The notes under the pieces were generated by a model, which was not told where the DNA came from, made no database searches, and saw nothing but the letters and a program-made list of their open reading frames with translations. 58,303 nucleotides of DNA from a virus. Its lineage: Duplodnaviria > Caudoviricetes. Below, piece after piece: positions 12,582-49,324 of the stretch; position 1 is the first letter of the stretch; each line of letters opens with the position of its first letter. The stretch covers positions 1-58,303 of IMG/VR virus record IMGVR_UViG_3300003324_000049; one strand, written 5' to 3'. Made by a program: the position numbers and the translations under genes.

Positions 12582-12619
12582 AAAAAAAGGAGGGCTTGTT
12601 AGGCTCTCCTCTTTTGGAA

Positions 12620-13060: not shown

Positions 13061-13152
13061 TTTAGTTCCTTTCAGAGGGGTTTCTTTCTCATTAAAAGGC
13101 ATGTAAAATGTGCGATGCAAAAATGAGAATCCATGTAGGATTCTCATCTTAG

Positions 13153-13377: not shown

Positions 13378-13571
13378 GATTATTCCTTAATTTGATAGGG
13401 TCTTCTTCTCATAAAAACCCATGTAAATCATGCGATTGTTTTCCCAGAAATTCCCCCCGCGCTTTTTTTCAGAATCGAAAAAATTAAAAGCCATGTAAAA
13501 ATAGAAGCCCTGTGTAAGAGGTTTTAAGTCTTACACAGGACTCCTATTTTGATTACTTGTGGTGGTTCATG

Positions 13572-13856: not shown

Positions 13857-13913
13857 GAGGTCTCCTTTCAAGAGTCTTCATTATAATGCGTGTTTTATCC
13901 GCGAATCCGCTCA

Positions 13914-24805: not shown

Positions 24806-24808
24806 AAG

Positions 24809-26364: not shown

Positions 26365-26661
26365 TTAAGTTGGAAGGCCAACGATCCTACGAGCAGCTAC
26401 CTCAGAGATTCCGGCATCGATAAGTTCCTGCGCAGCTTCTTGCTTTGCAGCTACGTCGTCGGCTGATTCGACAGGGGCGGGTGTTGTGGCTTGCTGAGGA
26501 GCACTCCAGTTGTCACCGTCCTTTGTCCAACCAATTGAGACTTCATTGGGTGCTGCGAGTAGCAGATGACCACTCGGCGGGGTGTAATGATCGGAAATAT
26601 CCAGAAGGATAACGTTGACTACTTTAGTTCCATCAACAATTGCATATTTTTGTGCGCCCAT
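26365..26661 (-). CDS. Tail fibre assembly-like small protein
   Basis: YAIV....VVNVI...IGW..DG..W pattern following the glycine-rich fibre. Confidence 0.65.
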   Translation of the reverse strand: MGAQKYAIVDGTKVVNVILLDISDHYTPPSGHLLLAAPNEVSIGWTKDGDNWSAPQQATTPAPVESADDVAAKQEAAQELIDAGISEVAARRIVGLPT

Positions 26662-27590
26662 TAGAAGAATACCTCCACGATAACGAGACCTGCTGCACCG
26701 GCACCACCAGAAGCCGAAGCCCCATTTTGGTTTACGGCAGCGCCACCACCGCCTCCGCCATACAAAGTTCCAGGAGCACCTGCTAGAGAGCTTCCGGTAG
26801 CACCATTGTAGGTACCGAAACCACCGGCTCCGAAGAGCGAGGACCCACCGACTCCGCCATGGGCAAGAGAAGCATTTCCACTACCAAAGTTTCCAGGGGA
26901 ACCTTTAATGAGAATAGTTCCAGCAGTCGGAGTTCCACCTGCCCCACCAATAGCGCCAATCATCAAAGCAGTGTCAGCAAACGATGCTCCACCATTGCCG
27001 CCATTAGCAGCAGCATGTGTTCCAAATGACGTTGCGCCACCTGTACCGCCCGCGCCACCAGCGCCACCACCGCCACCTGCACCGATCGTGATGGTTTCAG
27101 AAGCGGCAAGTTGGTCTGCGAGAATAAATTTCTCAGCATATCCACCACTACCTCCACCTGCACCGGATGAGTGGTTTCCAGAACTAGCCGCAGCAGCGCC
27201 ACCACCACCGCCACCTCCACCTACGGCACGAACTCGAATTGCTCGAAGACCGGGGTAGTTGGTCTTAACGAAAGTGCCACTAGATGTGTAGAAAATGGGA
27301 GAGCCCATAGGGCGATAGCCCGAACGTGTAGCAAGAACGTTGGCGAGAGTGAATGGCGTGATAGCTCGTGTGGTATCAGTTCCCGCGATAGCCTCTGTGG
27401 CGTCGGCAATTTCGATACCGCCAGGAGCTTCTTCAGTAGCCAAATATGTTGTAATAGGACCAGCATCAACAGTTGCGCCGCCCCTATTAACGAGAATAAG
27501 GTGGCCCACTTCATCAATGTAGCCATTTACAATTGAGGCATTCTCAATCTCGAGCATTCGACCAGCGGTAAGACCTGTTACTGTAGCCAT
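26661..27590 (-). CDS. Glycine-rich minor tail protein
   Basis: Poly-Gly C-terminal domain (VGGGGGGGG...GAAGLVIVE). Confidence 0.85.
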   Translation of the reverse strand: MATVTGLTAGRMLEIENASIVNGYIDEVGHLILVNRGGATVDAGPITTYLATEEAPGGIEIADATEAIAGTDTTRAITPFTLANVLATRSGYRPMGSPIFYTSSGTFVKTNYPGLRAIRVRAVGGGGGGGGAAAASSGNHSSGAGGGSGGYAEKFILADQLAASETITIGAGGGGGAGGAGGTGGATSFGTHAAANGGNGGASFADTALMIGAIGGAGGTPTAGTILIKGSPGNFGSGNASLAHGGVGGSSLFGAGGFGTYNGATGSSLAGAPGTLYGGGGGGAAVNQNGASASGGAGAAGLVIVEVFF

Positions 27591-30522: not shown

Positions 30523-32718
30523 CTACGCGGTGTAGGTGAAGGTCCAGTTACGAGTGGACAGCGGAGCCAGGTAGTAACCCGTGGTCGGCTCAGCCGATAC
30601 ATCCGTGGTCTCGGTGATCACGCGGTCACCTGCCGGTACAACAGCACCGTCGATCAGGTACTCAACACCGGTCTGAGACGGGATCGTCAGAGTGTTGGTT
30701 GCAGAGTCGAAGGACGGAGCCGTAGCGGTCACTTCGGTACCCTGATCGCGACGGATAACCAGAGCCGACTTGGGCTTGGTCAGAGCACCCGACATGCGGG
30801 TTTCCATCAGGTACTTGTACTGGTTGAAGTCGATGTCGAAGTCATCGAATGAGGTGATCTCGCCACCCTTGTTGGTACCGACCGTGTAGTCGATCAGGTT
30901 GACGATGATGCCGAGGAGCGTAGCGTCCTCACCCATCGGTTCGACGGGAACGATCTCCTTGACGCGGATCGCGGCGGCCAGAGCAGCCTCGGTCTCGTAC
31001 AGGCGGCGGCCCATCTTGTCCTTCAGCAGGAGCAGTTCGGTCAGAACTGCATCCGTGGTGTAGAAGGTCGGGGAGCCGGAGCCACGGTAGTTGGTACGAG
31101 CGCGGGTGATCTCGTCGATCATCACGTCCGGAGCAACGTTGGCTGCCAGCTGAACACGGTGAGCGTAGAGCTCGTGGTCGTTTGCGATGGAGCGGATACC
31201 GATACCATCGGTCTGGCCCTGCGGGTCCTTGATCTTGTCAGCGTGACCCACTGCACGACCGTCGCCGATAAGGATTGCGCGAGCGATTTCCTCGTTCAGC
31301 ATGAAGCGGATTTCCCACTTCAGCCAGGTGATGATGTCGATGTCGGTGATGTCGATGACGTCATCCCGGTCCAACTTCTGCTTCTTGTAGACAGTTGCCG
31401 GGGAGGTGGAGCGCTGCAGGAGGACGACAACTTCGTCCTTCTTCAGGGTGCCCTTGGTGTAACCCTTGGCACGAGCTTCCTCGGCGGTCAGGTCGGCGAG
31501 GATAGTCTTGACGCGAGCGAAGGGGGAGTGCTTCGTGGCGCCCAGAACCTTCTGAACCCATTCGGTCTGACGAGAGATGAGCTCCGGGGTCTGCGAGGAG
31601 ACACGAGCATCCGGGAAGAGGATGTCGATGTTCTCGATGCCGTAGTCAGCGTGCGCGAGCTGGAACTTGGCGAACGCCTTCTTGAAGGAGCCAGTGGACT
31701 GAGCGAGCTCGTTCAGTTCGATGACGTCGGAGTGGGAGAGCGTGTAACGGTCCTTGGTGGCGGTGCCGCCAGTAGCGCCGTTTTCAAATGCGTTGTAGGT
31801 CATGTCGGCAGAGCCTTCCTGATTGTGCTGGAGATTTTCAGAACCGTCGCCAGAATCGGCGTCGGAGTGTTCGGCTGAATCGTCTGAGTTATCATTCGAT
31901 TCGTTGGAGGTGTCGCTCGAGTCCTCACCATCATTTTCGACACCCTCTTTATCGAGGGCTTCGCCGATCAGTGTGTGGAATACGTCGAGCTGGGTAGGTG
32001 TCAGAGAATCGATAACCTCATCCACATCAATCTCTTCGTCCGTCTCTTCGGCATGAAGCACGACATCGCCGTCCTCTTCGTCAGAGTCGTCGCTGTGCTT
32101 CACAGAGCCAGAGGCAGCCTGAGAGACCAGTGCGTAGAGAACCGTCTTCTGCTTGGGTGACATACCGGCGAGGATTTCCGCAACGGTTTCACCTTCTTCG
32201 GAGTCGTCCTTCGTCTCAGAAGTTTCAGCATGGGAGAGAGTGAATTCTTCACCAGAGTAGATGATCGCTTCACCAATCATGGTGTCGGTACCATCTGCTG
32301 CGTGACGAAGATTGATGTCTTCAATTACAGCTCCCGAATTAGCACCCTTGTATACGAGGCTAACTTCACAGATATTGCCGTGAACAACATCGGCACCCAT
32401 CTGCTTGAGACGATTTGCAAAGATGGAGAGCATCTTTACATCGCCGTGACGGACAAGTTCCTTAGCATCCTTAGCAGCCTGGGTTTCATTGAAGAAAGCT
32501 TCAGTGTAAACTCCGTCTGCACGGTGGTAAAGAACCGCGTGACCCAAGACGTTGCTTGGTGTGTCGTGCTGATGCTGCCATACGAGGGGTACAACTGCCT
32601 GGTCCTGATGAACGAATGCGCCATGCTTGATCGTACGACCATCGGAGCACTCGATGTCGAACCGTGTAGCATAACCCGTAAAGTCAGGCCGTGTACTGGT
32701 TTCCGTGACTACTGTCAT
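30523..32718 (-). CDS. Prohead protease-scaffold-major capsid fusion (731 aa)
   Basis: HK97 protease motifs (FTGYA, PLVWQH.H, LSI, EVSLV..GAN), acidic linker, HK97-fold capsid region, C-terminal Ig-like domain. Confidence 0.9.
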   Translation of the reverse strand: MTVVTETSTRPDFTGYATRFDIECSDGRTIKHGAFVHQDQAVVPLVWQHQHDTPSNVLGHAVLYHRADGVYTEAFFNETQAAKDAKELVRHGDVKMLSIFANRLKQMGADVVHGNICEVSLVYKGANSGAVIEDINLRHAADGTDTMIGEAIIYSGEEFTLSHAETSETKDDSEEGETVAEILAGMSPKQKTVLYALVSQAASGSVKHSDDSDEEDGDVVLHAEETDEEIDVDEVIDSLTPTQLDVFHTLIGEALDKEGVENDGEDSSDTSNESNDNSDDSAEHSDADSGDGSENLQHNQEGSADMTYNAFENGATGGTATKDRYTLSHSDVIELNELAQSTGSFKKAFAKFQLAHADYGIENIDILFPDARVSSQTPELISRQTEWVQKVLGATKHSPFARVKTILADLTAEEARAKGYTKGTLKKDEVVVLLQRSTSPATVYKKQKLDRDDVIDITDIDIITWLKWEIRFMLNEEIARAILIGDGRAVGHADKIKDPQGQTDGIGIRSIANDHELYAHRVQLAANVAPDVMIDEITRARTNYRGSGSPTFYTTDAVLTELLLLKDKMGRRLYETEAALAAAIRVKEIVPVEPMGEDATLLGIIVNLIDYTVGTNKGGEITSFDDFDIDFNQYKYLMETRMSGALTKPKSALVIRRDQGTEVTATAPSFDSATNTLTIPSQTGVEYLIDGAVVPAGDRVITETTDVSAEPTTGYYLAPLSTRNWTFTYTA

Positions 32719-33988
32719 TTTGAAGGTTCTCCTTCCTTTCTTGAGTTGTTTCCGATGGTGGCGAAGAGCCTTTTACCTTGCCGACATTATCCTCGTTCGG
32801 CATGTTCGAGTTCTGCAGCTTGTCGGCTTTCGCTTCTGTAGATGGCTTGAACCCGATAGCGGCACGAATTTCATTACTGGTAACAATCTCATTACGAGAA
32901 AGTTTATCGGCAATATCGGCAATGTCGATAAGACTGGCATTCTTAAATGGGTCCCGATAGAACCGAATTGCCTGTCCTTGTGCACGAGCAGTCTTAGATA
33001 GGAACTTTCGCTCCATACCTTCAGAAATAGCTGTGAGAATTGGCTCAACTGTACGGTTGTTGTAGTTGATCAACATCTTTTCATCAGCAGTACCTTCGAA
33101 GACATCCTTCGTGATACCCAGCTGTGAGTACAACTGCTTGGTTAGGAATTCGACCTGTGCCAGCATGTTGTTCTCAGCAGGACGGTTTAGCTGTGTAATC
33201 TTCTCGGTGGCATCTGCATAAGCAACACCATACTTCGAGTTATACAACTGCTCTTCCATGTCCTGTCGACGAGCAGCGGCCTGCTGCTTACGAGATTCAG
33301 ACTTAACTACATAAGGAAGCTGGATAATGATGTCCAGTTTTCCAGAACCAGCCTGTTCATCGATCGCATCGAGGAGGCTGAGCTTACGGGTCAAACGCTT
33401 CAGTGTCGAGTTATCGTCGTTCATCACGGCATAGAGAGGATTCTCAATGATCGCTACTTGACGCTTTGGAAGCGTGAGTTCTTCCCTGTTACCCGTCTTC
33501 TGGTTATAAACCAAAACACGAACATGATCGGGAAACCATGCCACAACTTCACCAACACGCAGTGTTTGGATTTCGTAAGCCATTGATACAGCGGGATCAT
33601 CGGTAGCTTCCATGATGCATACAGCAGCAACACCCTTATCAAAGAGTGTCATTGCGATATTTTGTCGGAATGCACGAGCTCCTTGGTCGAGGTTAGCTTC
33701 AAAAGTAAGACAGTCGTTAAGACCACCTTTCATTTTTTCTTTGAAGCGACCCTCGTCATCCAATCGAACATGTTGAATTGGAATTGCTGCAACGTCAATG
33801 GCAATCTGATTGTAGATAGACGTGATAACCGTCTTATCCCCTGAGAATCCAAATCTTCCAACACTTGGATTACGACCAAAGTTTGCACTAGTTCCCCAAG
33901 ATTGATATCGAGTTGTTTCCTCTTTATCAAATGGACTATAGCTTGCTGCGTGAGCGATGAAATCTTTAACCTGTTGCATAAACCCCAT
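32684..33988 (-). CDS. Portal protein
   Basis: IAIDVA.IPI and T.NE.R..G motifs; lies between terminase and capsid. Confidence 0.9.
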   Translation of the reverse strand: MGFMQQVKDFIAHAASYSPFDKEETTRYQSWGTSANFGRNPSVGRFGFSGDKTVITSIYNQIAIDVAAIPIQHVRLDDEGRFKEKMKGGLNDCLTFEANLDQGARAFRQNIAMTLFDKGVAAVCIMEATDDPAVSMAYEIQTLRVGEVVAWFPDHVRVLVYNQKTGNREELTLPKRQVAIIENPLYAVMNDDNSTLKRLTRKLSLLDAIDEQAGSGKLDIIIQLPYVVKSESRKQQAAARRQDMEEQLYNSKYGVAYADATEKITQLNRPAENNMLAQVEFLTKQLYSQLGITKDVFEGTADEKMLINYNNRTVEPILTAISEGMERKFLSKTARAQGQAIRFYRDPFKNASLIDIADIADKLSRNEIVTSNEIRAAIGFKPSTEAKADKLQNSNMPNEDNVGKVKGSSPPSETTQERKENLQNDSSHGNQYTA

Positions 33989-34023
33989 AAGTTTTCACCC
34001 CCTCTCATTTTTATAGTGTAGAC

Positions 34024-34446
34024 TCATTTTTTACCCATAGTGTCCGTAACTGCGAATTTGTCACCACGAAGAAGATGCAGATATTGTTTACCTGCGTCTT
34101 TATGCTTCGGGCTGAGATCGCTTACCTTAACACCCTGAAAGTGCTGAGCCATTTTCAGCTCCCACTTACGAGCCTTCTCATTGTATTTTGTGCTCTTGTA
34201 GGAGAGTCGCATACCCTTTCGGATCTTACGGAAATTTCCCCACTTCGAGCCCTTGTACTGAAGCTTGGCACCGCGTTTAGCAAGCTTACTGGCTTTCTTA
34301 TCCAGACGGATTGCTTTTTTAGAAGCACGAGCAAATGTCCGAGAGGCATTACCCCTTCGAACACCCCACTTCATTCCCTTAACGCCAATATGGGCAAGGA
34401 ACTCATCGACTTTATCAGGTTCGTCGACGTTTAAATCGTCGCTCAT
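34024..34446 (-). CDS. Basic protein with LAHxGVKGMKWG motif
   Basis: EFLAHIGVKGMKWGVRR; Lys/Arg-rich. Confidence 0.8.
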   Translation of the reverse strand: MSDDLNVDEPDKVDEFLAHIGVKGMKWGVRRGNASRTFARASKKAIRLDKKASKLAKRGAKLQYKGSKWGNFRKIRKGMRLSYKSTKYNEKARKWELKMAQHFQGVKVSDLSPKHKDAGKQYLHLLRGDKFAVTDTMGKK

Positions 34447-36212
34447 TCAAATGCCTCCTTATTGGCTTTGTATGCTATGTAGGCATCCATCATGGCGGCC
34501 ACATTGTCAATCTTCTGATCTTGACGTTTCTTCAAAAGTTTACGGTTACCATTGGTGTCTTCCATCGTAATGGCGTTACCCATAGCAAACTGCATAAGAA
34601 GTTGATCGAAGATGAGCATACGTTGCTCACTCAGCTGCTTCAGTTCACCAAGAGGAACAGATTCAGTTCGAGCACCCTGAGGAACTTTCTCAATTCCAAA
34701 AGGTCCATTGTCTTGCTCCCACCTACTTACAAATTCTTTAGCATTGTAAGGGTCGAAACCGAAAGCTCGAACATCGAAGCCATTCTTCTCAATGAAAGCA
34801 TCGAGGTCATCGTAGACAGCCATCATGTCGAGGACTGTGCCCTCAAGAACGTGAAGGCTACCCTCTTGAATAAACTCTTCATACTTTGCTCGAGCAGCTG
34901 CCGGAAGCTTCATATGAGTGTTTTGGGAGATGTAACTTCGGGTTATGATTCCGAATGTTCCATTAGGGCGAGGAAACATGAAAGTGAAGGCACAGAAGTC
35001 ATCACCCTGTGAAAGGTCGGCTCCCAAAGCACAAGGTAGTTGCCAGAAACGTGGTACACGCTTATGAGGCTCAGTCTCTTCGTAAGTGAAGAAGTACGTA
35101 TAGCCTTCCATGGGAATTCCGAAACGCTTAGCCAGGATATCGTTCCGTGATGAAGGTGAAGCTTCAATTCGTTCGACATCTCGCTGGTAAGTTTCATAGG
35201 TGACGGTCTGTCCGATGTTGGGTTGGGCCTTGGGCCACATCGCAGGTTCAGTGACTTCCTCCAATTCATCAAGCCGGTAGTGCCAGATTGAAATGTGAGG
35301 CATATCGAATTCGCCCTTGAGAATGCCAGCTAGTTCCATTTTGATAGTGTCACCACTACCGTTACGAACGGTACCCTCAGAGCTGATCGCCACAATCAGG
35401 TAGTCGTCCAATTTGGACGCACCCTGTTCAATAGCACCTACTACGTCTTCACGAACGTCCCCAGACAGCCATTCGTCAACTGTAGAGATCTTCGGACGAA
35501 GACCCTGCAGCTTGTCCACCTTCATTGGGCGAACCTCGAGTAGAGAACCCGTTAGGAAGTTCTCGATACCCTTCTTGGTCGAAGCGAGTTTGACTCGATT
35601 CATCTTGTTTCCCGTGGTGTTCTGAAGAGACCCCTCAGTGAGGAACTTGAACAATGGACCACGAGCGCGAGTAATCGCGGTTCTAAATGGAGACATCACT
35701 TCATCAGCCTGCTTCATGGTTGGAGCAGTTGTGATTTGGTGAGATGTAGAGGTGTCCACATTCAGAAAGTAGCTTTGGATGCACTCAGCATACATGGACT
35801 TGGCAGCACCACGAGCTACGATCAGATACTGCTTGACAGTAAGCCGCTTCTTAATAGTTTTCTGGACATAACGACCACCGTAGTTGTCAGGGGAGGGTTC
35901 GTAAACACTCCGCTCTACAAAGTAGTACCAACCGAAGATCTGTTCAGCCCAAAGTTTGAAGCTATCCAGAAGGTGGAGGTCTGTCCCGTCCGTTAGAGTG
36001 AGCTCATTCTCGCAATACTTGATGAAGCCGTTGATAGCCAAATCATCATAGTAGAAACGAGGGTCGGCGATGAGTGCGTCAATCCGATTCATCTCGGCAC
36101 TGATCTCTTTACATACGGGGATTTCTCCGTTGAGAACTCTCTCACGGAATCTCCCATAATAAATTGGTGTTGCAGTGTTAGACAGAGCCAAAGCCGACCC
36201 TCCTTTCATCAC
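34443..36212 (-). CDS. terL: Terminase large subunit
   Basis: Walker A VARGAAKS, Walker B STVDE, nuclease GADLS, FDPY and KIDNVAAMMDA. Confidence 0.93.
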   Translation of the reverse strand: MMKGGSALALSNTATPIYYGRFRERVLNGEIPVCKEISAEMNRIDALIADPRFYYDDLAINGFIKYCENELTLTDGTDLHLLDSFKLWAEQIFGWYYFVERSVYEPSPDNYGGRYVQKTIKKRLTVKQYLIVARGAAKSMYAECIQSYFLNVDTSTSHQITTAPTMKQADEVMSPFRTAITRARGPLFKFLTEGSLQNTTGNKMNRVKLASTKKGIENFLTGSLLEVRPMKVDKLQGLRPKISTVDEWLSGDVREDVVGAIEQGASKLDDYLIVAISSEGTVRNGSGDTIKMELAGILKGEFDMPHISIWHYRLDELEEVTEPAMWPKAQPNIGQTVTYETYQRDVERIEASPSSRNDILAKRFGIPMEGYTYFFTYEETEPHKRVPRFWQLPCALGADLSQGDDFCAFTFMFPRPNGTFGIITRSYISQNTHMKLPAAARAKYEEFIQEGSLHVLEGTVLDMMAVYDDLDAFIEKNGFDVRAFGFDPYNAKEFVSRWEQDNGPFGIEKVPQGARTESVPLGELKQLSEQRMLIFDQLLMQFAMGNAITMEDTNGNRKLLKKRQDQKIDNVAAMMDAYIAYKANKEAFE

Positions 36213-36730
36213 TAGAGTTTTACTGTAGTTTGTGCACGAGGCGTGAACTTTACAGTTGGTCGAGCAGACCCGCCAGATGCCTTAGAGATAGCTGCTTCGA
36301 TGGCCATTTGCGCACCAACTTTAGCAGCTTCTTTACCGGCGGTCTTAGCAGCGTCTTTCAGACCTTCTTTAAGGGCGTTCTCAATCTTCTGATTGAGATA
36401 CGTCTTTGCTTGCTTCCGACTGACGTCGCCAACATCTTTGAGTAGAGCTGTAACGATCTTTTTACCGTTACTAATCTCAGGCTCAGTAAGTTTGAGGTAT
36501 TCCTTCTCAAGCTTAAGTCGATTGATTGCAGACTTCAGCTCATCGTCAGTCATCTTCTTGACATCTGGCTTCGCCGGTTTAGAGGTAGAGCCATCAGAAC
36601 CTTCAGAGTCTGATGAGGTTTGCTTTTTACGCTTACCCCACCGCATTCCTTTTACTCCAAAGTGAGCAAGCTCGTCCTCGTCCAGAATTACTCCGTGGTC
36701 ACCGAGGATGTCGCTAGCGCTTCTGCCCAT
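36212..36730 (-). CDS. Protein with LAHxGVKGMRWG motif
   Basis: DELAHFGVKGMRWGKRK; MTDDEL...INRL.LE helical repeat. Confidence 0.8.
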   Translation of the reverse strand: MGRSASDILGDHGVILDEDELAHFGVKGMRWGKRKKQTSSDSEGSDGSTSKPAKPDVKKMTDDELKSAINRLKLEKEYLKLTEPEISNGKKIVTALLKDVGDVSRKQAKTYLNQKIENALKEGLKDAAKTAGKEAAKVGAQMAIEAAISKASGGSARPTVKFTPRAQTTVKL

Positions 36731-37068
36731 TTCACCCCTTCCATATGAACATTAAGACGCCATTCCATCTGACCTGCCTGTCGCTCCATGGCTTCAGCCA
36801 AAGGACCAGTTTGTGGCGGGTCAAATATGAGTCGCACCTTCAAACCCATGTAGGTTTTGACGGCAGCGAGATATTGATCTCCAATAAACTCACTCCACTT
36901 GTTCTCACGACCAGTAATCTGATAGCCGATTTCAGGACCGACGCCCAATTGCTGGAGAACAAAGAAGGTTGAGTTAATATGAAGGATTAGTTCCTCGTCA
37001 GCATCAGTATCTTCAGGATCTAGAAAGACCTGTCGCTTTACTGTGTCGAGAATGCTGTCGTTATCCAT
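36688..37068 (-). CDS. Head-tail connector-like protein
   Basis: SIL.TVK...D.EL..HINS.F..L.QLGVGP...LIFDPP...EWRL pattern. Confidence 0.65.
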   Translation of the reverse strand: MDNDSILDTVKRQVFLDPEDTDADEELILHINSTFFVLQQLGVGPEIGYQITGRENKWSEFIGDQYLAAVKTYMGLKVRLIFDPPQTGPLAEAMERQAGQMEWRLNVHMEGVKWAEALATSSVTTE

Positions 37069-37225
37069 ACCCTACTCCAAAAAGTCTGAGGATCGGATCA
37101 GCTAGACGATGGATCGCGAGAATGAACATAGCTACCCAGATACCAAAAATACCAAGAATGGCACTGATGATACCTAGGAGCAGAACACCTCCCAGGAAAT
37201 GATCCTGGATGAAGCGTGTAACCAT
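37061..37225 (-). CDS. Small membrane protein (54 aa) directly after the endolysin
   Basis: Manual translation MVTRFIQDHFLGGVLLLGIISAILGIFGIWVAMFILAI... Confidence 0.6.
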   Translation of the reverse strand: MVTRFIQDHFLGGVLLLGIISAILGIFGIWVAMFILAIHRLADPILRLFGVGYG

Positions 37226-37229
37226 CTAG

Positions 37230-37967
37230 TTAGCCAGCGGACGGAGGAATCGGCTTGTCGTTGACGGTGATGTCAACATCGACGACAGCCTCTTCCATAC
37301 CCTTGCGGACTGCAGCGGCAATCTGGTCAGCGTCGAGGTTCGGGTTCTTTGCAAGCTGCGCAACGAGACCAGAAAGTGCAATGACCTGCTTACGGATAAG
37401 AACGACCTCGGTCTTGAAGGAATGCGAACCGCCGTGAACGACAGTCTGCTCCATGACCTTGTTGGGTACAGCAGAAACAGGCGCATCGAGATAGCGTTCA
37501 ATGCGATCGAGAGCCTGTGAAGCGGTGAGTGCCATAAGGAAATCATCTGCTTTCGTGGTAGTGGTGGATTCGACGTTGATTGTTGAGTTTCCGACTACGG
37601 CATATGAGGCGACGTCTTCCGTCCATCCTCGATACCGAAGGGTCATTCCGTAATATGCGTAGAAAGACTCAAGAGCTTCCAAGCTATCGTGAATAACCGG
37701 CCATCCCGAGTAATCCGAAGTGGAATATACCTTGCCCTCGGGAGAACGCAGCACGACATGACCAAGAGGTTCCTGATCGATGCCATACCAGACGGGAAGC
37801 CATAGACCTGGAGGGAAGTTTCGATCCCGATGCTGGGACTTCGACATATTCCAAGCTTCAGTGGCACTTCCATACTTGATGGGGAGGCGAAATGCTTCTC
37901 GAACATACTGCAAGCACCATCCACCAACACATGGAATCATGGGAACAGGGTTAACAAGCTGTTTCAT
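37230..37967 (-). CDS. Endolysin (CHAP/NlpC-like cysteine peptidase N-domain)
   Basis: GWCLQYVREAF...SATEAW...GHVV catalytic Cys/His pattern. Confidence 0.75.
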   Translation of the reverse strand: MKQLVNPVPMIPCVGGWCLQYVREAFRLPIKYGSATEAWNMSKSQHRDRNFPPGLWLPVWYGIDQEPLGHVVLRSPEGKVYSTSDYSGWPVIHDSLEALESFYAYYGMTLRYRGWTEDVASYAVVGNSTINVESTTTTKADDFLMALTASQALDRIERYLDAPVSAVPNKVMEQTVVHGGSHSFKTEVVLIRKQVIALSGLVAQLAKNPNLDADQIAAAVRKGMEEAVVDVDITVNDKPIPPSAG

Positions 37968-37977
37968 GAAGACCTTT

Positions 37978-38448
37978 CTAACTAGCGAGTTTTAGTAGTG
38001 GTTTACTCCACAGTCGCGTGTCTCCAGGTCGACGTTCCGGAAGGGGAAGCGCTAACAGACTTTTATCACCGTAGTGAATTGCGTTGTGGGTTCGGTGTGT
38101 GACGGTTATGAGATACTCCGGGTTAAGAATATCCACGTTGCCGCGAATCAGATCCTTAGGAGCCATGGGATTCATATGATGAATGATGGGGCGTTGAAAT
38201 ATGTCGTAACCGTCGACACCCATATCGCAACTCAGATCTCGAGTTAGGACTTCATCTCGGATAAGACGCCATTCTCTTGAAGTATAGAACTTCTGATTGA
38301 GATGGCGTTCGAAACCGAAGGTGGATTCGCCGACTACACCTTTAATGCTTAGATAGTTGAATCGTTCTTCAAAAGATTCAAGCTTAGCTAGCTCAGTATA
38401 CGTTCGGATCACCATCAGTCTCCGTCTCTTGATGTCCTCCATAGCCAC
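37978..38448 (-). CDS. HNH endonuclease (packaging-associated)
   Basis: FY.S.EW...R..V..RD, IHHMNP, L......HNAIH. Confidence 0.85.
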   Translation of the reverse strand: MAMEDIKRRRLMVIRTYTELAKLESFEERFNYLSIKGVVGESTFGFERHLNQKFYTSREWRLIRDEVLTRDLSCDMGVDGYDIFQRPIIHHMNPMAPKDLIRGNVDILNPEYLITVTHRTHNAIHYGDKSLLALPLPERRPGDTRLWSKPLLKLAS

Positions 38449-38803
38449 GCATAGCAGCCATTGCTTCTATGTAAAGACTCTTCATCTCTTCGACGTTAGC
38501 AAGGTCCTTAACCTTTGCCTCGACAAGGAGAGTTTCCTGCTTCTGCTTCTGAAGCTCCACCTTTTCACGAGTAGAGCCTACTTTAAGGAAGTGGACGATT
38601 ACCTGTGACGAGGCAGTACCTTCACGAAACTGTCTTTCAGCCAAGTCGTAAGCCATAGCTGCCAACTGAGCTTCCCGTGCCTCGGGACTTCTTGCTCGCG
38701 GGAGTCGTTTAAGAGGTTTCTCTTCTTCAACGATCTCGGAGTCATAGACTTTGCGAGCTCTTTCAAGTGGGGGAGGCTCGATACGTTTGCGTGGGCCTGT
38801 CAA
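38393..38803 (-). CDS. Conserved helical protein, possible terminase small subunit
   Basis: Size, helical content and position upstream of the HNH and terL genes. Confidence 0.5.
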   Translation of the reverse strand: MTGPRKRIEPPPLERARKVYDSEIVEEEKPLKRLPRARSPEAREAQLAAMAYDLAERQFREGTASSQVIVHFLKVGSTREKVELQKQKQETLLVEAKVKDLANVEEMKSLYIEAMAAMRGYGGHQETETDGDPNVY

Positions 38804-38839
38804 AGGTAATCACCTCCTTAAATATCTAGTAGTAGAGTT

Positions 38840-39079
38840 TTAGACGTACACTCGAGTGTTCATTCGAACGTAACCCTCGTAACATCCGAGTGCTACCCTC
38901 TCGAAATAAGTGCAGCCGTAGCGGTAGCAGTAGTAGCCGCCATTCATTGCCCAGTAACAGCTCGTGTATGAGGCTGCTTCGGCTTTCTGAACAACGGGTG
39001 CTACCGGAGTTCCCGATACAGCCGTTGCCCCGAAGGCAAGCAATGCAGACGAACCAAGAATTGCCAGAAGTTTCTTCAT
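38840..39079 (-). CDS. Secreted small Cys/Tyr-rich protein
   Basis: Signal peptide MKKLLAIL...AEA; four Cys in the mature part. Confidence 0.7.
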   Translation of the reverse strand: MKKLLAILGSSALLAFGATAVSGTPVAPVVQKAEAASYTSCYWAMNGGYYCYRYGCTYFERVALGCYEGYVRMNTRVYV

Positions 39080-39091
39080 ACTTCCCCTATG

Positions 39092-39271
39092 TTATAGACC
39101 GTTGATTTGTGGAATTGTCTCCACGTATCCAGGACAGTCGAAATGTGGTTCATGACCGATAGTCAAACCACAAAACGGATCTTCCTGAACAGGTTCTGGG
39201 GTTTCTTGACTTGCTTCTTCGGCCGCGGCTGCTTTTTCAGCAATCATTGCGTGTGTTTCAAGCGTGCACAC
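39092..39271 (-). CDS. Small protein, 59 aa, with CG-x4-H-x2-H...CPGY motif
   Basis: Manual translation from GTG after GGGGG RBS. Confidence 0.55.
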   Translation of the reverse strand: MCTLETHAMIAEKAAAAEEASQETPEPVQEDPFCGLTIGHEPHFDCPGYVETIPQINGL

Positions 39272-39305
39272 AGTGTTACCCCCGATAGTAATGATGTTTA
39301 TGATG

Positions 39306-39911
39306 ACAAAGTTGCTAAAACAGACAAAAGTAAAGAATACATGTTCGCAACTTTGTAGAATTCGGCAAAAGTAAAGAATCTATGTAGGAACTCTATGATA
39401 GAACGTTAGATCTCGAACGTTTACAACCGCACGAAGTCACAAACGCCTCTTGAAAGGAGTGTAGGGTAGATGAAGTCCTACTTTTATTGTGAGATCTAAC
39501 GCTCTATCACAGAGTCCCTACATAGTATGAGGGAACTTTGGACCTAGTATGGTGACTGTATACTCATACTTCTTACCCTCAGAAGGAATGCCAGATTTGC
39601 GCGTCGGCAGGGAACGATCATGTCGTAGAAAACCATTAAGTCCGGTGAGACCTGGAATTCCATCTAAAGGTAAGGGGTTTACATGTATAGCTTGAAGAGG
39701 GCTTAGGTTCTCTGACGTTGCCCAACGTACTGACTAGGCGGAGAGTCGTCCCGGAATCGACACCTAGGAGATCAACTAAACCCTCATCAAGTCATACATG
39801 TATAGTGTTGTGGGCGTCGATTCGTCCGGATTTCTCAGCTCTCATGGGGGAAGAGCACGGCCCCAGCCACAGACATTTAAGCTACCTCGGCAGATAGCCC
39901 CACAACTACTA
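39306..39911 (-). ncRNA. Tract of six near-abutting long stem-loops; putative structured RNA or precursor
   Basis: Inverted repeats 39306-39315/39347-39356, 39380-39414/39491-39525, 39524-39531/39563-39570, 39572-39594/39652-39674, 39680-39706/39776-39802 and ~39803-39815/39897-39911; many mismatches become G-U pairs on the minus strand. Confidence 0.7.
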
Positions 39912-39912
39912 A

Positions 39913-40089
39913 CTACTTATTGTCGTTCTTCTCAGAAGCACGCGAACGAGAGCGCGAAGGCTTCTCAGCTTCCTTGAGAGTTTCGATTCGAGCATCGACA
40001 ACACGCTCGATGAGGTCCTGGTTGGGAACGAGCCAATCAACCTTGGGGGTTGTGGGAACGGCTTCTTCGTTTTCGGGAGTTTCTGCCAT
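39913..40089 (-). CDS. Small hypothetical protein (MAETPEN...)
   Basis: RBS GAAAGG before the ATG; first ORF of the late block. Confidence 0.6.
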   Translation of the reverse strand: MAETPENEEAVPTTPKVDWLVPNQDLIERVVDARIETLKEAEKPSRSRSRASEKNDNK

Positions 40090-40243
40090 GATAGAGACCT
40101 TTCGCAGATTGATGAGGGTCAAATTGTTCCCGGAAAAGTTCCCCCGGGGCATTTTTTAGAAGGGCCGCGATGCAGGGAGGGGGGCCTGTTTGCGAGACCC
40201 CTCCCCCCATACCGCTTATTGAATTGTATATTCAGTTATTTAT

Positions 40244-40495
40244 TCAGTTAGAGCTAGGATTTTCAACTCTGATGTAATTTCCAGTGATATTGAGCTCAAG
40301 TATCTCATCGATAGCATGATCGATAGCTTGTATCTGATCAAGTTCACTCAATTCATCACTGAATACACAGATCCTAGCTTGGTAGGCCAGCGTATGGTAG
40401 CCTGACTGCTGGTCCCAGTTGTTCCACTGATCGAACTCAGTGAAAGGATTGTATGGATTGTCAGCTGTCGATAGCATTGTTTCTTTAGCCAACAT
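40244..40495 (-). CDS. Small conserved-type protein downstream of the RNAP-like gene
   Basis: RBS GAAAGGA; MLST.DNPY.PF..F..W...D...GY motif. Confidence 0.75.
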   Translation of the reverse strand: MLAKETMLSTADNPYNPFTEFDQWNNWDQQSGYHTLAYQARICVFSDELSELDQIQAIDHAIDEILELNITGNYIRVENPSSN

Positions 40496-40507
40496 CTTTC
40501 CTTTCTC

Positions 40508-43255
40508 TTAGTCTTCAGTTGGTTTGGGATTGATAGCACGATCCAATGTTGATGTAGATACACCAAGGATAGTAGCCACATCAGCCTGTGTCTTACCACT
40601 AGCCAGCAAGGACTGAGCTCTAGCAAGAGTACTACCTGCCATTACCTCTGTCTTCCTGGGTGTAGCCAGTTCCTTGACGTTGTCTATGTCAGCATTGTCA
40701 AGGATCTTCTCCAGCATGTTGGTACTGATAGCACCAGCCTGGATAGCATCCCATTCTTTAGGGGTGATCTTAATGGTCTGCTTGGTAGCACCGGTTCTAG
40801 CACGGCCTTCTTGTTGTGCAAGACTCTTGATCTTCTTGAGTTCAGCTGCATCCATCTCTGGATTAGCATCTCTCTTAGCCTTAACAATAGTACCGGCTAT
40901 CAGCTGGGCATGGCGTTCAAGGGGTTTATTCTTGAGGGCCTCGTTGAGTTTGCCACGGAGGGCGTCTACTTCGACGGCGTATACCTTCTTAGCAGAGGCG
41001 CTTTGTGGAGTGGGGGTAACATTAACCGCTACCTTCCTTGACTCATTGGCCAGAGCCTTCAGCTTATTGGCATGGTCTGCATAGACATGTTCTATAACAG
41101 TGCCGCCATTAGAAGACACCAGGTCATAAGCATCATCTACTAGATCAAGCTTCTTAACCTTAGTAGTCTTGAGGATACCGGTATCCTCATACTTACCAGT
41201 AGCTGGGTTCAGAGCCTTCCGAGTCTCACCAGTCTCTACCCATACCCTCTTACCAGTAGCCTTATCAATAGGTCCACCATCCTTAGCCATACGAGGTTTC
41301 CTATCAGGAACCCTGGCTTCAGACTTAGCCCTAGAGATAATGGTCGATGCACCACCAGCTTTGCCGTTAGGCTTCATCTGGTATTCCCTCTTAAGAGCAG
41401 CAATGCCATTGTCTTTAGCAGACTGCTTATAATCGAGGTGGTGTTTCTCAGCATCGATAACTACCATTGAGTGCTTGACTGCACGAGCAATCTCATTGAA
41501 TGGTGCACCCTTGATGGTCATGTCTGTAATCAGATTAGAGACATCGCCCATCTGTTGGCCTTTGGCTTTGGCCGACATCTTAGGTGCATCATCGGGAAGC
41601 TTATACAGCTTCTTAGGATCGAAGTCCTTCAGTTCCTTTAGGGGCTGAGATGACTTGATCTTACCTTCAGGATTGGGAATGACAAGGACAGTATCGCCAT
41701 CAAAGTCTGCACCAGACAGTCGTTCTGCTACCTTCGAGTTGATACCAATAGCATCCCTAGCCTGCTTGATTACAGCATTGGCTTCACGGTTCTTGTTGTT
41801 GACAACGAGTTCCGGGATTTCAAAAGTACCACCATGAGGGTGTCGAATCAGAACAACCTTTTCTCCATCCTTGTAATTAGGAGCATAAACTTCATAGTCC
41901 TTCAAACTGTTGAATGGGAGAATGACATGGTTGGCAGTTCGAGGAAGACCCGCTGCTTTCAGATGAACGGCAGAAGAATCGGCTCCATCAGCGAACTTCT
42001 CCATCAACTTCCGTTTTACAACAGGGTTGGTGAGAGAATTGATTTCGTCGAATTCGGCTTTCTTCTGATCATACCGTTTTCCAAGCTGTTCCTTAGCAAG
42101 GCTCGGACTTTGCTTAGAGAGCATCTGTGAGGAAAGCTTATTGGACCATGCAGTCCAGTCACCTTCTTCATTCACAATGTTGAGCGCAGAAGTAACCGTT
42201 TCAGTTCCATCTTTGTTCTTTTTCGTGATTTGACGAACAGCAGACCCAAACGGGTTTTCTTCGTCTTTTTGAGGCTTCATAGCATCGAGCTTGTTGCCGG
42301 TGTCACTCTTATTGGTGTTAAAGATCATATCCACACCATTTGGGAGGTTGTCATTATACATGACCATTCCCTTAAGGTAGTGAGTGCCGTTTACACCAAT
42401 TCGAACCTGGGCATATCGAGAATTCCCCATATCAAGGTCTTTTACGCCTCGACGGATCTCAATAACGCCGTCTTTGTCAGCACCGCCTTCTTCGGCATAC
42501 CGAACGCCTACCCGCTTAAGGTCTACGTTGAGCGGGGGCAACATTCCGAAGTTGGTAAAGGATTTACCGCCATCATCAGAATCTCCAAGCAAGGGTTTGA
42601 TCTTGTCCTTGTTTTTGAGAACGTCAGAATAGGTTTTATCAGGACCAGTCAAAACTTTGATATTGGTAAAGTTACCAGTACCCATCTGTTCCTGTTTAAT
42701 GTAGTGGACCTTATAACCTTCTTCTTTAAGAGCGGCAATAGCCGTTCCGAGGCGAGTACTACTTACGCCAAGATGATTTTCGGTTCCAGCACCGAAGTCG
42801 ACATACTCATTCTTCGAAATTTGGTCTTTGATGAGTTTCGCAGTACCAAGAATCGCATTTTGGTCTTCTTTTTGTGCATCGGCAAGAAGAGCACGAACAG
42901 AAGACTCGTTTTTACCACCCATGAGCTCACCAATCTTTACATTGGTATAACCCTTTTCTTTTAGCTTTACAGCCTGGGCAATATCAGCTCGTTTAATCTG
43001 ATCATTAGCGATAGACGTCAAAGCACGAAGCTGAGTCGTCGTCATTTTGTATTCTTTGCCATCCGCATCGACACCGCTGTAGTATTTAGCGATTTCGGTG
43101 GGAGTCAAACCCTGTTTCTGCAGAGCTTCGATGTGACCTTTAAACGAACGAGACCGTTGTTCAGGATTTTCACCGCTACCCCAAGGATAGCGGCCAGACT
43201 TTCGCAGGATGCCTTCATGTCTTAGAAAGCTTGCGTCTGTAGTTTCTTTTCCCAT
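40508..43255 (-). CDS. Single-chain two-barrel (DPBB) RNA polymerase-like protein with HTH domains (915 aa)
   Basis: YAQVRIG...YLKGM (barrel 1); RHPH...LSGADFDGD (catalytic motif, 41693-41713); N- and C-terminal HTH-like segments. Confidence 0.8.
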   Translation of the reverse strand: MGKETTDASFLRHEGILRKSGRYPWGSGENPEQRSRSFKGHIEALQKQGLTPTEIAKYYSGVDADGKEYKMTTTQLRALTSIANDQIKRADIAQAVKLKEKGYTNVKIGELMGGKNESSVRALLADAQKEDQNAILGTAKLIKDQISKNEYVDFGAGTENHLGVSSTRLGTAIAALKEEGYKVHYIKQEQMGTGNFTNIKVLTGPDKTYSDVLKNKDKIKPLLGDSDDGGKSFTNFGMLPPLNVDLKRVGVRYAEEGGADKDGVIEIRRGVKDLDMGNSRYAQVRIGVNGTHYLKGMVMYNDNLPNGVDMIFNTNKSDTGNKLDAMKPQKDEENPFGSAVRQITKKNKDGTETVTSALNIVNEEGDWTAWSNKLSSQMLSKQSPSLAKEQLGKRYDQKKAEFDEINSLTNPVVKRKLMEKFADGADSSAVHLKAAGLPRTANHVILPFNSLKDYEVYAPNYKDGEKVVLIRHPHGGTFEIPELVVNNKNREANAVIKQARDAIGINSKVAERLSGADFDGDTVLVIPNPEGKIKSSQPLKELKDFDPKKLYKLPDDAPKMSAKAKGQQMGDVSNLITDMTIKGAPFNEIARAVKHSMVVIDAEKHHLDYKQSAKDNGIAALKREYQMKPNGKAGGASTIISRAKSEARVPDRKPRMAKDGGPIDKATGKRVWVETGETRKALNPATGKYEDTGILKTTKVKKLDLVDDAYDLVSSNGGTVIEHVYADHANKLKALANESRKVAVNVTPTPQSASAKKVYAVEVDALRGKLNEALKNKPLERHAQLIAGTIVKAKRDANPEMDAAELKKIKSLAQQEGRARTGATKQTIKITPKEWDAIQAGAISTNMLEKILDNADIDNVKELATPRKTEVMAGSTLARAQSLLASGKTQADVATILGVSTSTLDRAINPKPTED

Positions 43256-49049: not shown

Positions 49050-49108
49050 AGATAAGAGACCTTGTTACGGGTCTCTTATCTCTCATTATAAACTGTGTAG
49101 ATCTTGCG
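49050..49108 (-). promoter_or_regulatory. Cassette-type promoter followed immediately by a terminator hairpin
   Basis: CGCAAGATCTACACAGTTTATAATGAGA, then AGATAAGAGACC-CGTAACAA-GGTCTCTTATCT and TTTT. Confidence 0.75.
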
Positions 49109-49324
49109 TTAGAACGAGAATTCGGGGATAGTAGAGAGCAGATCATTAGGACTCTTAATCCAAACAAGACTGTCCTTACGCAATGGATACCACTGCTTCC
49201 CGAACTGCTCTCTACGTATTAGCCGAGTCTTAGTATCGGCATGACGCACATCCCCATACTGATTGATCTCGTACAAAGGAAAGTCGGGGAGAACCTTCCA
49301 CTTCTGCCTGGGTTTCTTAGGCAT
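49109..49324 (-). CDS. NUMOD4-like protein
   Basis: KWKVLPDFPLYEINQYGDVR. Confidence 0.7.
   Translation of the reverse strand: MPKKPRQKWKVLPDFPLYEINQYGDVRHADTKTRLIRREQFGKQWYPLRKDSLVWIKSPNDLLSTIPEFSF

Follow-up and report, generated by a model that had tools for sequence, protein, structure and literature searches.

Prohead proteases and packaged proteins in described phages

Phage T4 encodes the prohead protease gp21 and carries capsid-targeting leaders on its internal proteins IPI-III and Alt. The HK97 protease gp4 cuts after Lys; we know of no cargo tag in this phage. In the giant phages phiKZ and SPN3US the cleavage motif ends in Glu (A-x-E). According to the available text of PMC10052503, head proteins and the portal of these two phages lose N-terminal propeptides of 20-254 residues, the prohead protease (gp175/gp245) makes multiple cuts inside the propeptides, most of the giant-phage head proteins (42) are uncleaved, and the head-internal ejection proteins of SPN3US include a virion RNA polymerase for early transcription.

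For the phage group studied here, a capsid-protease fusion, an RdRP/YonO-like protein with a DxDGD loop and an array of small membrane-protein genes have been described (bioRxiv 10.1101/842583; Klyczek 2017, PMC5513430); in the portions of these two papers that were available, a His motif, DUF7211, cleavage specificity and polymerase packaging are not mentioned. The Podgorski capsid paper treats a different capsid family (PMC11965321). A literature search found no publication on a hydrophobic-x-His motif or on DUF7211. Searches on the capsid-protease fusion returned genome notes with nothing on cleavage, those on prohead protease motifs and capsid targeting returned T4 and the giant phages alone, and those on a YonO/QDE-1 virion polymerase in actinobacteriophages or phage 1706 returned the known preprint alone.

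Genome and gene organization

The window (the whole stretch of DNA analysed, 58,303 nucleotides) comprises the entire genome of a siphovirus from the group that contains Arthrobacter AM/AU, Gordonia DJ, Streptomyces BI and Lactococcus 1706. The capsid fusion matches 251 phage records and the polymerase 250. By host genus, the two proteins have identical counts in the three largest, Arthrobacter (95), Gordonia (55) and Streptomyces (54), as well as in Lactococcus, Curtobacterium, Microbacterium and Rhodococcus. All of the genes under study are on the minus strand (translated ORFs):

30523-32718, minus strand: whole fusion protein P0001 (protease-scaffold-capsid; ORF)
32302..32718, minus strand: prohead serine protease domain, P0001 residues 1-139 (Pfam Peptidase_S78)
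31651..32301, minus strand: acidic scaffold/spacer, P0001 residues 140-356 (charge, His sites, AF2 model)
30523..31650, minus strand: HK97-fold major capsid domain, P0001 residues 357-731 and stop (Pfam Phage_capsid, Foldseek)
32684..33988, minus strand: portal protein (Pfam Phage_portal, 71.7 bits)
33950-33988, minus strand: FIAH13-A site of the portal (codons near the N-terminus)
34024..34446, minus strand: small, very basic tagged protein P0003 (Pfam DUF7211)
34348-34419, minus strand: DUF7211 tag of P0003
34443..36212, minus strand: large terminase subunit (Pfam TerL_nuclease, 118.7 bits; phrog_9)
36212..36730, minus strand: tagged protein P0005 (Pfam DUF7211; phrog_7021)
36620-36679, minus strand: DUF7211 tag of P0005
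40508..43255, minus strand: two-barrel (QDE-1/YonO-type) RNA-polymerase-like protein P0006 (phrog_4291, Foldseek)
43172-43255, minus strand: variant tag FLRH13-EGILRKSGRYPWGSG, N-terminus of P0006

The protease-scaffold-capsid fusion protein

The N-terminal part of P0001 has the conserved domain PF04586 (Peptidase_S78; 33.5 bits, cut-off 21, residues 12-133), and the AF2 model has a pLDDT of ~90 across residues 9-137. H49 and S98, which we take by analogy to be the catalytic residues, are invariant in 39 homologues, and H113 is nearly so. The protease domain ends at the first conserved site of the spacer, NLRH139-A. The C-terminal part has the conserved domain PF05065 (Phage_capsid; 29.9 bits, cut-off 24.2) and is matched by Foldseek to GTA, HK97 and actinophage capsids (E ~1e-8; TM 0.53-0.62, depending on the target). 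A preliminary description of this DNA had placed its last hydrophobic-x-His site at the probable capsid start, and this placement agrees with the AF2 model and Foldseek, in which the final spacer site coincides with the onset of the HK97 fold. The residues around this point are strongly conserved among homologues (H356 in 120/120, A357 in 115/120 and Y359 in 116/120), and A357 (A-D-Y-G-I) is proposed from the sequence as the mature capsid N-terminus.

Nine of the 21 His residues of P0001 lie in the spacer (residues 134-357):

H139, NLRH-A
H163, TLSH-A
H208, SVKH-S
H222, VVLH-A
H248, DVFH-T
H284, SAEH-S
H298, NLQH-N
H329, TLSH-S
H356, QLAH-A

With the exception of H248, these sites had all been listed beforehand, and every listed motif string is present in the translated ORFs (capsid fusion, portal, P0003, P0005 and P0006). 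The spacer is acidic (residues 140-356; pI 4.1, with 54 D+E versus 10 K+R). The motif [LIVMF]-x-H-[ASGN] occurs seven times in its 227 residues; the background, made up of the remaining 14,292 residues of the 61 minus-strand ORFs within the window, has 24 occurrences (Fisher p = 4e-7). Counted per His, the motif is present at 7/9 positions in the spacer versus 24/248 elsewhere (p = 6e-6). The recurrence noticed at first is real, and a chance origin is excluded.

The listed sites are not equivalent. H139, H163, H298, H329 and H356 are conserved in 119, 116, 119, 118 and 120 of 120 homologues, respectively (here as elsewhere the homologue sets are kin sequences, and the counts are not of independent events), with L or I at P3 throughout. 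The spacer around these five residues is otherwise variable and acidic. H208, H222 and H284 fall within indel regions, H284 being unconserved, and H248 is also unconserved (Y50/H18/N14). Among 962 spacer His residues, P3 is L/V/I/F/M in 831 (86%, versus 21% expected by composition), P1' is A/S/G/N in 732 and P2' is D/E in 517. In the AF2 model the spacer forms three helices (179-203, 232-258 and 329-356); the site-bearing stretches between them have pLDDT <50, or the sites are located at helix ends, and the sole spacer His in the middle of a helix is the unconserved H248. The hydrophobic-x-His sites thus stand out by their conservation from a spacer that is variable, acidic and predicted to be disordered, and in this they look like protease sites. 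A complex prediction of the protease domain (residues 1-134) with the tag described below is uninformative either way (score 0.02, mark 0.32).

The portal protein, which was also thought to begin with such a site, has the N-terminus MGFMQQVKDFIAH-AASY. Of the 52 unique homologue N-termini, 40 have a hydrophobic-x-H-[ASG] sequence and the other 12 lack the His.

DUF7211-tagged proteins

The genes encoding P0003 and P0005 border the terminase gene on either side. P0003 has an acidic leader of 19 residues ending in FLAH and followed by IGVKGMKWG (DUF7211, 48.2 bits, cut-off 27), and the part after His has a pI of 11.1. The leader of P0005 ends in ELAH23 and is followed by FGVKGMRWG (DUF7211, 43.4 bits against the same cut-off), with a post-His pI of 9.9. 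A six-frame DUF7211 search of the whole genome finds these two proteins alone. Together with P0006, discussed below, they have leaders of 13-23 residues ending in Leu-x-His and post-His pI values of 9.3-11.1. P0005 might, from its gene position, be the small terminase; no DNA-binding fold or family match was found for it in the Pfam, PHROG and ESM Atlas searches, the last of which gave other DUF7211 clusters alone and no informative fold.

The tag is very common, its profile matching 46,018 protein cluster representatives (E <= 0.001). The 71 related loci have 124 tag ORFs, of which 122 flank the terminase gene within the head module, either directly upstream of TerL or between the TerL and portal genes. 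The tag His is retained in 138 of the 139 unique tags of these loci, the lone exception being Gln, and all 92 single-tag small proteins have a post-His pI above 9. The best 150 tag proteins are polyproteins with 2-5 tags each (median spacing 206 residues), and the enzymes adjoining tags include a GNAT acetyltransferase, a glutamine deamidase and a 2H phosphoesterase. A second hydrophobic-x-His or -Gln site is located 9-14 residues upstream of 246 of 385 internal tags, compared to 11% of background windows. A logo of 138 unique DUF7211 tags and 106 unique polymerase N-termini has the pattern acidic-acidic-aromatic-Leu-x-His-Tyr-Gly-Ile/Val in common. Because they share this extended site, the tagged proteins are read as putative substrates inside the prohead.

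As to whether the tag is itself cut, its most conserved part sits after His, its P1' residue is aromatic where that of the spacer sites is small, and the Pfam DUF7211 model fails to recognise the polymerase. All three observations would suit an arrangement in which only the spacer sites are cut and DUF7211 serves basic proteins of the head module as a functional motif at their N-terminus (binding, for example, DNA, the portal, the terminase or the scaffold), with a structural His and a convergent likeness to Leu-x-His. This arrangement is nevertheless considered unlikely: the segment before His resembles a propeptide in being acidic and in its variable length of 5-23 residues, and the polyprotein tags with their second His/Gln site suggest processing into modules. 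In addition, a 13-column half-profile built from the DUF7211 leaders connects the tags with the spacer, its top matches in capsid fusions being spacer sites of the E-S-F-L-x-H-A-G type. Cleavage of both the spacer and the tags is the preferred reading.

The RNA-polymerase-like protein

P0006 is matched over its full length by phrog_4291 and has helix-turn-helix regions as well as a DFDGD metal-binding loop (D517-F-D-G-D521) that is invariant in 36 homologues. Its AF2 model (pLDDT 76.4; <50 for residues 1-28) is matched by Foldseek to QDE-1 (E-value: 1e-8, probability 1.00), to RDR2, to Thermus phage polymerases (E-value: 1e-5) and to the virion polymerase of the crAss-like phage phi14:2 (6vr4_A; E-value: 1.6e-2). 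The TM scores are ~0.3, low as expected for a multi-domain model. PF05183 (RdRP) scores 16.7 bits, which is under the cut-off of 23.8, and a PDB sequence-profile search with the 36 homologues did not find a polymerase, the best match being a helix-turn-helix repeat. By its predicted fold, P0006 is a two-barrel RNA-polymerase-like protein.

The N-terminus of P0006 is MGKETTDASFLRH-EGILRKSGRYPWG. The preliminary description had this protein sharing the tag of P0003 and P0005, and the two do appear to be related: a similar leader with an invariant His opens 119 of 120 polymerase family members (His 119/119 where the motif is present), and in 78 of 79 matched polymerase homologues the top match of the DUF7211 half-profile falls on this leader. 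These family matches have a median of 7.9 bits and none reaches an i-E of 0.01 or better; P0006 itself is detected neither by Pfam DUF7211 (six-frame search included) nor by the half-profile. The conserved stretch after His also differs, being S-G-R-Y-P-W-G-S-G in the polymerase and G-V-K-G-M-K-W-G-V-R-K in DUF7211. Because the profile tests miss P0006 or remain below threshold, membership of the polymerase in DUF7211 was dropped, and on sequence grounds its N-terminus is best classed as a related variant of DUF7211, outside the family as modelled.

Further annotation comes from the labels in the sequence record of Lactococcus phage 1706. The 1706 fusion protein and portal bear equivalent His sites. 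Both orf7, which has two tags, and orf75, the polymerase orthologue (BLASTP 1e-167), are annotated as "structural protein". This agrees with the initial proposal that the tag marks internal head proteins; however, orf62 and orf71 have the "structural" label and no tag, so the label is no proof of tag-dependent packaging.

The leader could have another purpose, for example as a late switch by which the prohead protease would activate, inactivate or relocalise a polymerase that is never packaged. To travel down the tail of a siphovirus, a 100-kDa protein would need to unfold, which speaks for such a role. The structural label of the 1706 orthologue speaks against it, as do the packaged polymerases known from other phages (phi14:2, by the Foldseek match, and SPN3US, in the available part of PMC10052503), and an unpackaged polymerase is judged improbable. 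The polymerase had been suggested to transcribe the cassette array of this genome upon injection. A strongly conserved 30-nt element that resembles a promoter and belongs to the array itself occurs 20 times, versus 0.6 expected, and a sigma-70 scan of the array gave no excess of canonical promoters (11 versus 9.7 expected).

Proposed model

From the sequences, we infer a cut that falls after His, loading that depends on the tag, and ejection, and the proposed model is as follows. The capsid protein is synthesised as a single chain in which an S78 serine protease comes first, the acidic scaffold spacer second and the HK97-fold capsid domain last. Once the prohead has assembled, the protease enclosed in it would act at sites that read [L/I/V]-x-His and then [Ala/Ser]-[Asp/Glu], cutting directly behind the His. 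The protease would thereby be released and the spacer cut into pieces of ~14-62 residues that exit the shell, leaving a mature capsid protein that begins with A357. The start of DUF7211 would be a longer version of this site (acidic, Phe/Tyr-Leu-x-His, Tyr/His/Phe-Gly-Val/Ile ... Trp-Gly), which opens the two very basic terminase-flanking proteins and, as a variant, the two-barrel RNA polymerase. The tagged proteins would co-assemble with the acidic scaffold, lose their short acidic leader and remain beside the DNA within the head; they would probably then be ejected into the host. The two basic proteins and the RNA polymerase are probably loaded into the head and trimmed there. Taken as a whole, His-specific cutting in the prohead combined with tagged head cargo is the explanation towards which we lean, by a modest degree.

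It is very improbable that the hydrophobic-x-His repeats stay uncut and serve in scaffold contact, pH sensing or metal binding, or that a host protease acts on them, since, although His can sense pH or bind metals and a host protease processes the capsid proteins of Staphylococcus phage 80alpha, a phage protease is here fused to the site-bearing chain itself, each His stands alone in a predicted-disordered acidic segment with no pattern of partner ligands, the interchange of His and Gln at the upstream sites fits a specificity pocket, and a hydrophobic P3 with a defined P1 agrees with the T4 and herpesvirus assemblin proteases, which have a like fold and this type of specificity.

If the model of His-specific cutting and head loading is correct, His at P1 would be a new specificity among HK97-type head proteases, and one that can be read from sequence, making mature capsid termini predictable in hundreds of genomes from actinophages and phages of Firmicutes. 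DUF7211, a very common domain of unknown function, would become a marker of proteins inside the phage head; it could also serve as a tool to load foreign proteins into phage heads. A packaged polymerase would explain how transcription and enzyme delivery could start at the moment of infection in phages of this group. To our knowledge, early transcription by a packaged polymerase is documented for podoviruses and giant myoviruses and not for ordinary siphoviruses.

More tentatively, a His-specific protease code may operate across a very large phage lineage, with [acidic]-Phe/Tyr-Leu-x-His as a portable signal for capsid loading and processing. The cargo, made from single genes or polyproteins, could then comprise the phage's own two-barrel polymerase, basic DNA-associated proteins, 2H phosphoesterases, GNAT acetyltransferases and glutamine deamidase, all of them injected along with the DNA so as to initiate transcription and weaken the defences of the host. 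The tag, with its 46,018 matched cluster representatives, would in that case be among the commonest protein-delivery tags in phages of Gram-positive bacteria. This extension is possible, but we hold it with some doubt.

Comparison with known systems

HK97 gp4/gp5 is similar to the system proposed here in its S78 protease family, its capsid fold and its capsid-fused scaffold (delta domain), which is removed by the protease. The HK97 protease differs in being encoded by a separate gene and in its preference for Lys. The polymerases of phi14:2 (gp66) and N4 (vRNAP) have a QDE-1-related two-barrel fold like that predicted for P0006 and are delivered with the DNA. Unlike the phage described here, phi14:2 and N4 are podoviruses with very large polymerases, and packaging of the present polymerase is suggested by the database label of a relative; we know of no His-site leader on phi14:2 gp66 or N4 vRNAP. 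phiKZ and SPN3US resemble the proposed system in the removal of N-terminal propeptides from head proteins and the portal, in repeated cutting and in a polymerase carried by the head; they differ in their Glu-ending motif and in having a polymerase of several subunits.

The T4 system is alike in more respects. A single head protease acts at a short motif in which P3 is hydrophobic and P1 is fixed, many cuts are made in the scaffold, the capsid N-terminus is cut, and short leaders are removed from basic internal proteins and an injected enzyme. A short N-terminal leader ending in a candidate protease motif, as expected of a T4-type scheme, is likewise found on the basic proteins of this genome. 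T4 cuts after Glu, whereas P1 would here be His and occasionally Gln. Unlike in T4, the protease is of the S78 family and forms one chain with the scaffold and the capsid protein, the phage is a siphovirus, and the system is one proposed from sequence. The T4 targeting leader is removed; here the residues of the tag that are strongly conserved come after His and so would remain on the cargo. By analogy, the system can be regarded as a variant of the T4-type scheme of prohead protease and targeting leader.

Genome and relatives

The window, 58,303 bases long, is an entire virus record; it has terminal repeats and a completeness rating of 100%, and its minus strand carries nearly all of the genes. 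The terminase, portal, capsid fusion and polymerase-like protein show 36-56% protein identity to relatives from phages of Arthrobacter, Gordonia, Streptomyces, Curtobacterium, Rhodococcus and Bifidobacterium and from Lactococcus 1706-like phages. Judging from the available text, this group is the "supercluster" of bioRxiv 10.1101/842583, in which a capsid-protease fusion, an RdRP/YonO-like protein with a DxDGD loop and a run of small membrane-protein genes were already known (bioRxiv 10.1101/842583; Klyczek 2017, PMC5513430). The available portions of these two papers contain no mention of the His motif, DUF7211 or polymerase packaging, and a full-text literature search returned nothing on the His motif or the DUF7211 family.

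Genes of the window considered here
30523-32718, minus strand: P0001, S78 protease (residues 12-133) and HK97-family capsid (423-654)
32684-33988, minus strand: P0002, portal
34024-34446, minus strand: P0003, Pfam DUF7211 match above cut-off
34443-36212, minus strand: P0004, large terminase
36212-36730, minus strand: P0005, Pfam DUF7211 match above cut-off
40508-43255, minus strand: P0006, polymerase-like protein, phrog_4291 over its full length

The stretch 36688-40495 falls within the coordinates of the preliminary description and encodes a connector protein (PF24829) and further, unassigned genes, none belonging to the finding. Elsewhere, two adjacent tail-region genes (23228-25885 and 26661-27590) are paralogues, as they have an identical start of about 15 residues and common DNA blocks that are 72-85% identical; the gene after the pair has Gly-rich 9-nt periodic repeats (27032-27230).

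His sites in the capsid fusion and portal

The preliminary description proposed a His-specific prohead protease from hydrophobic-x-His strings. All of these (eight in the P0001 spacer, and those of the portal, both small proteins and the polymerase) are present in the sequence, as is a ninth spacer His, DVFH248-T, absent from its list. The pattern [LIVMF]-x-H-[ASGN] is found seven times in the 227-residue spacer versus 24 occurrences across the remaining 14,292 residues from 61 minus-strand ORFs of the window (p = 4e-7), or at 7/9 His versus 24/248 (p = 6e-6). When P0001 is aligned with its 119 best database homologues (n = 120), His is kept at H139 (119/120), H163 (116/120), H298 (119/120), H329 (118/120) and H356 (120/120), each with Leu or Ile two residues ahead and surrounded by spacer rich in indels. 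Neither H284 nor H248 is conserved (at H248, Tyr in 50 proteins and His in 18), and H208 and H222 are positioned in indel blocks. The sites within these blocks, which vary freely, likewise fit the motif.

Pooling the 962 spacer His with full context from these 120 proteins (related sequences, such that the counts are not independent) gives a P3 residue, two before the His at P1, of L (525), V (144), I (125), F (22) or M (15) in 86% of cases, versus the 21% that the composition of the spacer predicts. Common P1' residues are A (325), S (266), G (85) and N (56), and common P2' residues are D (386) and E (131). The broader motif [LIVMFA]-x-H-[ASGNT] fits 744/968 spacer His versus 421/1,256 His in the folded domains. 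The geometry with a hydrophobic P3 is the one known for T4 gp21 and for the assemblin of herpesviruses.

The AF2 model of the fusion (pLDDT 70.4) has a confident protease domain (residues 9-137), in which H49 and S98 are invariant among homologues and H113 nearly so. It is followed by helices 179-203, 232-258 and 329-356, separated by segments with pLDDT <50 (138-176, 204-218 and 257-325). The disordered segments hold H139, H163, H208, H284 and H298; H329 and H356 are at helix ends, and the non-conserved H248 is mid-helix. The HK97 fold begins after H356 and matches HK97, GTA and actinophage capsids. The spacer pattern is that which would be expected from the fused protease cutting after His, the cut itself being one that we infer from sequence and model. 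Cuts at eight sites of the acidic spacer (pI 4.1) would yield pieces of 14-62 residues.

The proposed portal trimming is the weakest element of this pattern. The window portal site F-I-A-H/A (slash, proposed cut) is real and corresponds to the common motif L-K-H/A-W-N-A-F, but in 12 of 52 unique N-termini of portals the His is replaced by Lys, Asn, Ser or Gly, or the P1' residue is not small.

The DUF7211 tag

P0003 and P0005 begin with the tag. Across 80 related terminase loci, 133 tag ORFs (126 unique) carry 147 tag instances (138 unique). The logo reads acidic, acidic, Phe/hydrophobic, Leu, x, His, Tyr/His/Phe, Gly, Val/Ile, followed by Lys, Gly, Met, Lys/Arg/His, Trp, Gly, Val, Arg, Lys/Arg. 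The His is present in 138/139 unique tags of the loci, the single exception being Gln (locus L002). At least one tag ORF is found in 68/71 loci with an intact terminase ORF, and 122/124 tag ORFs sit either immediately upstream of the terminase gene or in the interval from it to the portal gene. In single-tag small proteins, the ten residues preceding the tag His have a median net charge of -2 and the part after it is basic (pI >9 in 92/92, median 10.5). The tag would load cargo, as opposed to basic charge merely meeting the acidic scaffold, and the cargo would presumably be ejected. A Tyr-Gly-aliphatic triplet is common to the tag and the last capsid site with a two-residue offset: the tag His is followed by Tyr-Gly-Val/Ile, and the capsid site reads His-Ala-Asp/Glu-Tyr-Gly-Ile (Tyr in 116/120; region 31651-31662 of the window).

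At an E threshold of 0.001, a 109-tag profile matches 46,018 cluster representatives, of which 2,457 pass a threshold of 1e-10. The best 150 matches (P0250-P0399) are 276-1,569 residues long and have 2-5 tags, with a median spacing of 206 residues and the tag His kept in 463/463. Scanning 6-22 residues upstream of their 385 internal tags identified a hydrophobic-x-His-small site in 146, a hydrophobic-x-Gln-small site in 100 and neither in 139, versus 289/5,217 (His-type) and 280/5,217 (Gln-type) background windows of the same polyproteins. The His sites are most frequent 9-14 residues upstream of the tag; in the Gln-type sites, Gln is followed by Ser/Thr. The layout of module, site, acidic spacer of about ten residues, tag and module looks like that of a polyprotein meant for cutting, and the His/Gln interchange fits a single specificity pocket. 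On this reading, the tag His itself, and not the upstream site alone, would be cut.

Most modules of the tag proteins have no Pfam family. A 2H phosphoesterase (LigT / 2'-5' RNA ligase superfamily) precedes the tag in 8/126 locus proteins (directly upstream at L020, L022, L026, L028, L038, L041, L050 and L077), in 8/62 top polyproteins and in two polymerase homologues, upstream of their own tag (P0174 and P0213); speculatively, it could be a packaged enzyme for nucleotide signals or RNA ends. After the tag come a GNAT acetyltransferase (2/126 locus proteins, 4/62 top polyproteins) or a papain-fold glutamine deamidase of the 'toxin 1' family (1/126 and 1/62), with such cargo at L022:5855-6643, L026:6332-7507 and L011:2144-2980. 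DUF6321 is found in 2/126 locus proteins. An 'acetyltransferase' annotation underlies the tag match in Gordonia phage Secretariat, Arthrobacter phages Makai and Truckee and Streptomyces phage Bilo.

The polymerase-like protein

The "RNAP-like" label given earlier to P0006 is justified by its fold and its DFDGD loop, which is invariant in 36 homologues. Fold matches of its AF2 model (pLDDT 76.4; residues 1-28 disordered) include QDE-1 (E 1e-8), plant RDR2 and polymerases of Thermus phages (1e-5); a weaker match is the polymerase that crAss-like phage phi14:2 packages in its virion. Against the Pfam RdRP model P0006 scores under the cut-off, and a PDB sequence-profile search with its homologues found no polymerase.

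A leader resembling the tag is found across the family of this protein. Of P0006 and 119 homologues, 119/120 contain S-G-R-Y-P-W-G, preceded at a distance of seven residues by an invariant His; the remaining one is truncated. The His is 5-23 residues from the protein start in 117; in two it is at position 168, after an N-terminal 2H-phosphoesterase domain. The family logo (acidic, acidic, Tyr/Phe, Leu, x, His, Tyr/Glu, Gly, Ile/Val, Leu) is that of DUF7211 over positions -6 to +4 relative to the His. In P0006 itself the leader (F-L-R-H-E-G-I-L) has diverged: P0006 is missed by Pfam DUF7211, and a 13-column profile of 107 DUF7211 leaders identified only P0005 and P0003 in the window. This profile matches 79/120 polymerase-like proteins, with the best match on the leader in 78/79, at a median of 7.9 bits and none at i-E 0.01 or better. 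The link is thus a short-motif resemblance, convincing by position and family-wide consistency and not by single-sequence statistics. In capsid fusions the profile matches best at spacer sites of the E-S-F-L-x-H-A-G type, which ties the tag leader to capsid maturation sites.

Deposited records bear on the proposal that the polymerase is packaged and injected. In Lactococcus phage 1706, orf7 (463 residues, two DUF7211 tags) and orf75 (1,029 residues; BLASTP 1e-167 and 36% identity to P0006) are each labelled "structural protein", as are orf62 and orf71, which have no tag. These labels reportedly derive from mass spectrometry of virions; in the ReqiPepy6 record, the polymerase gene bears the label used for 1706. 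The orf75 leader ends S-L-Q-H, followed by Y-G-T-K-R-H-S-G-R-Y-P-W-G. The 1706 fusion has the sites I-T-H/A, L-K-H/N, I-T-H/A, L-K-H/A and L-K-H/A-I-T-N-I-D-V-L-F-P, and its portal starts L-L-H/S-W-N-A-F.

Between a small post-polymerase gene and the head module, 1.1 kb of the window (39080-40243) is without a convincing ORF. The ReqiPepy6 record has a cos end at the equivalent place, just downstream of the polymerase gene, which would put that gene at the right end of the genome as packaged.

The array that the polymerase was proposed to transcribe comprises about 20 cassettes of small genes, most of which encode membrane proteins (6860-14100 and 49081-49120). Ahead of each, on the minus (coding) strand, is a conserved element consisting of a terminator hairpin, a box of about 30 nt with TATAAT and a Shine-Dalgarno site. 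There are 19 copies in the array and one at 49081 (core pattern 20 versus 0.6 expected), all in one orientation. By scan, the element is not a canonical sigma-70 -35/-10 pair; host and phage polymerases are both candidates for reading it.

Comparison with known systems

One of the closest systems is T4 gp21 with its targeting leaders. Another is that of the giant-phage proteases, which, in the available text of PMC10052503, trim head proteins alongside a virion polymerase. The system proposed for the window differs in its P1 residue, in its protease family and the fusion of the protease to the capsid protein, in the location of the conserved part of the tag after the proposed cut, in the polyprotein arrangement and in the type of virus.
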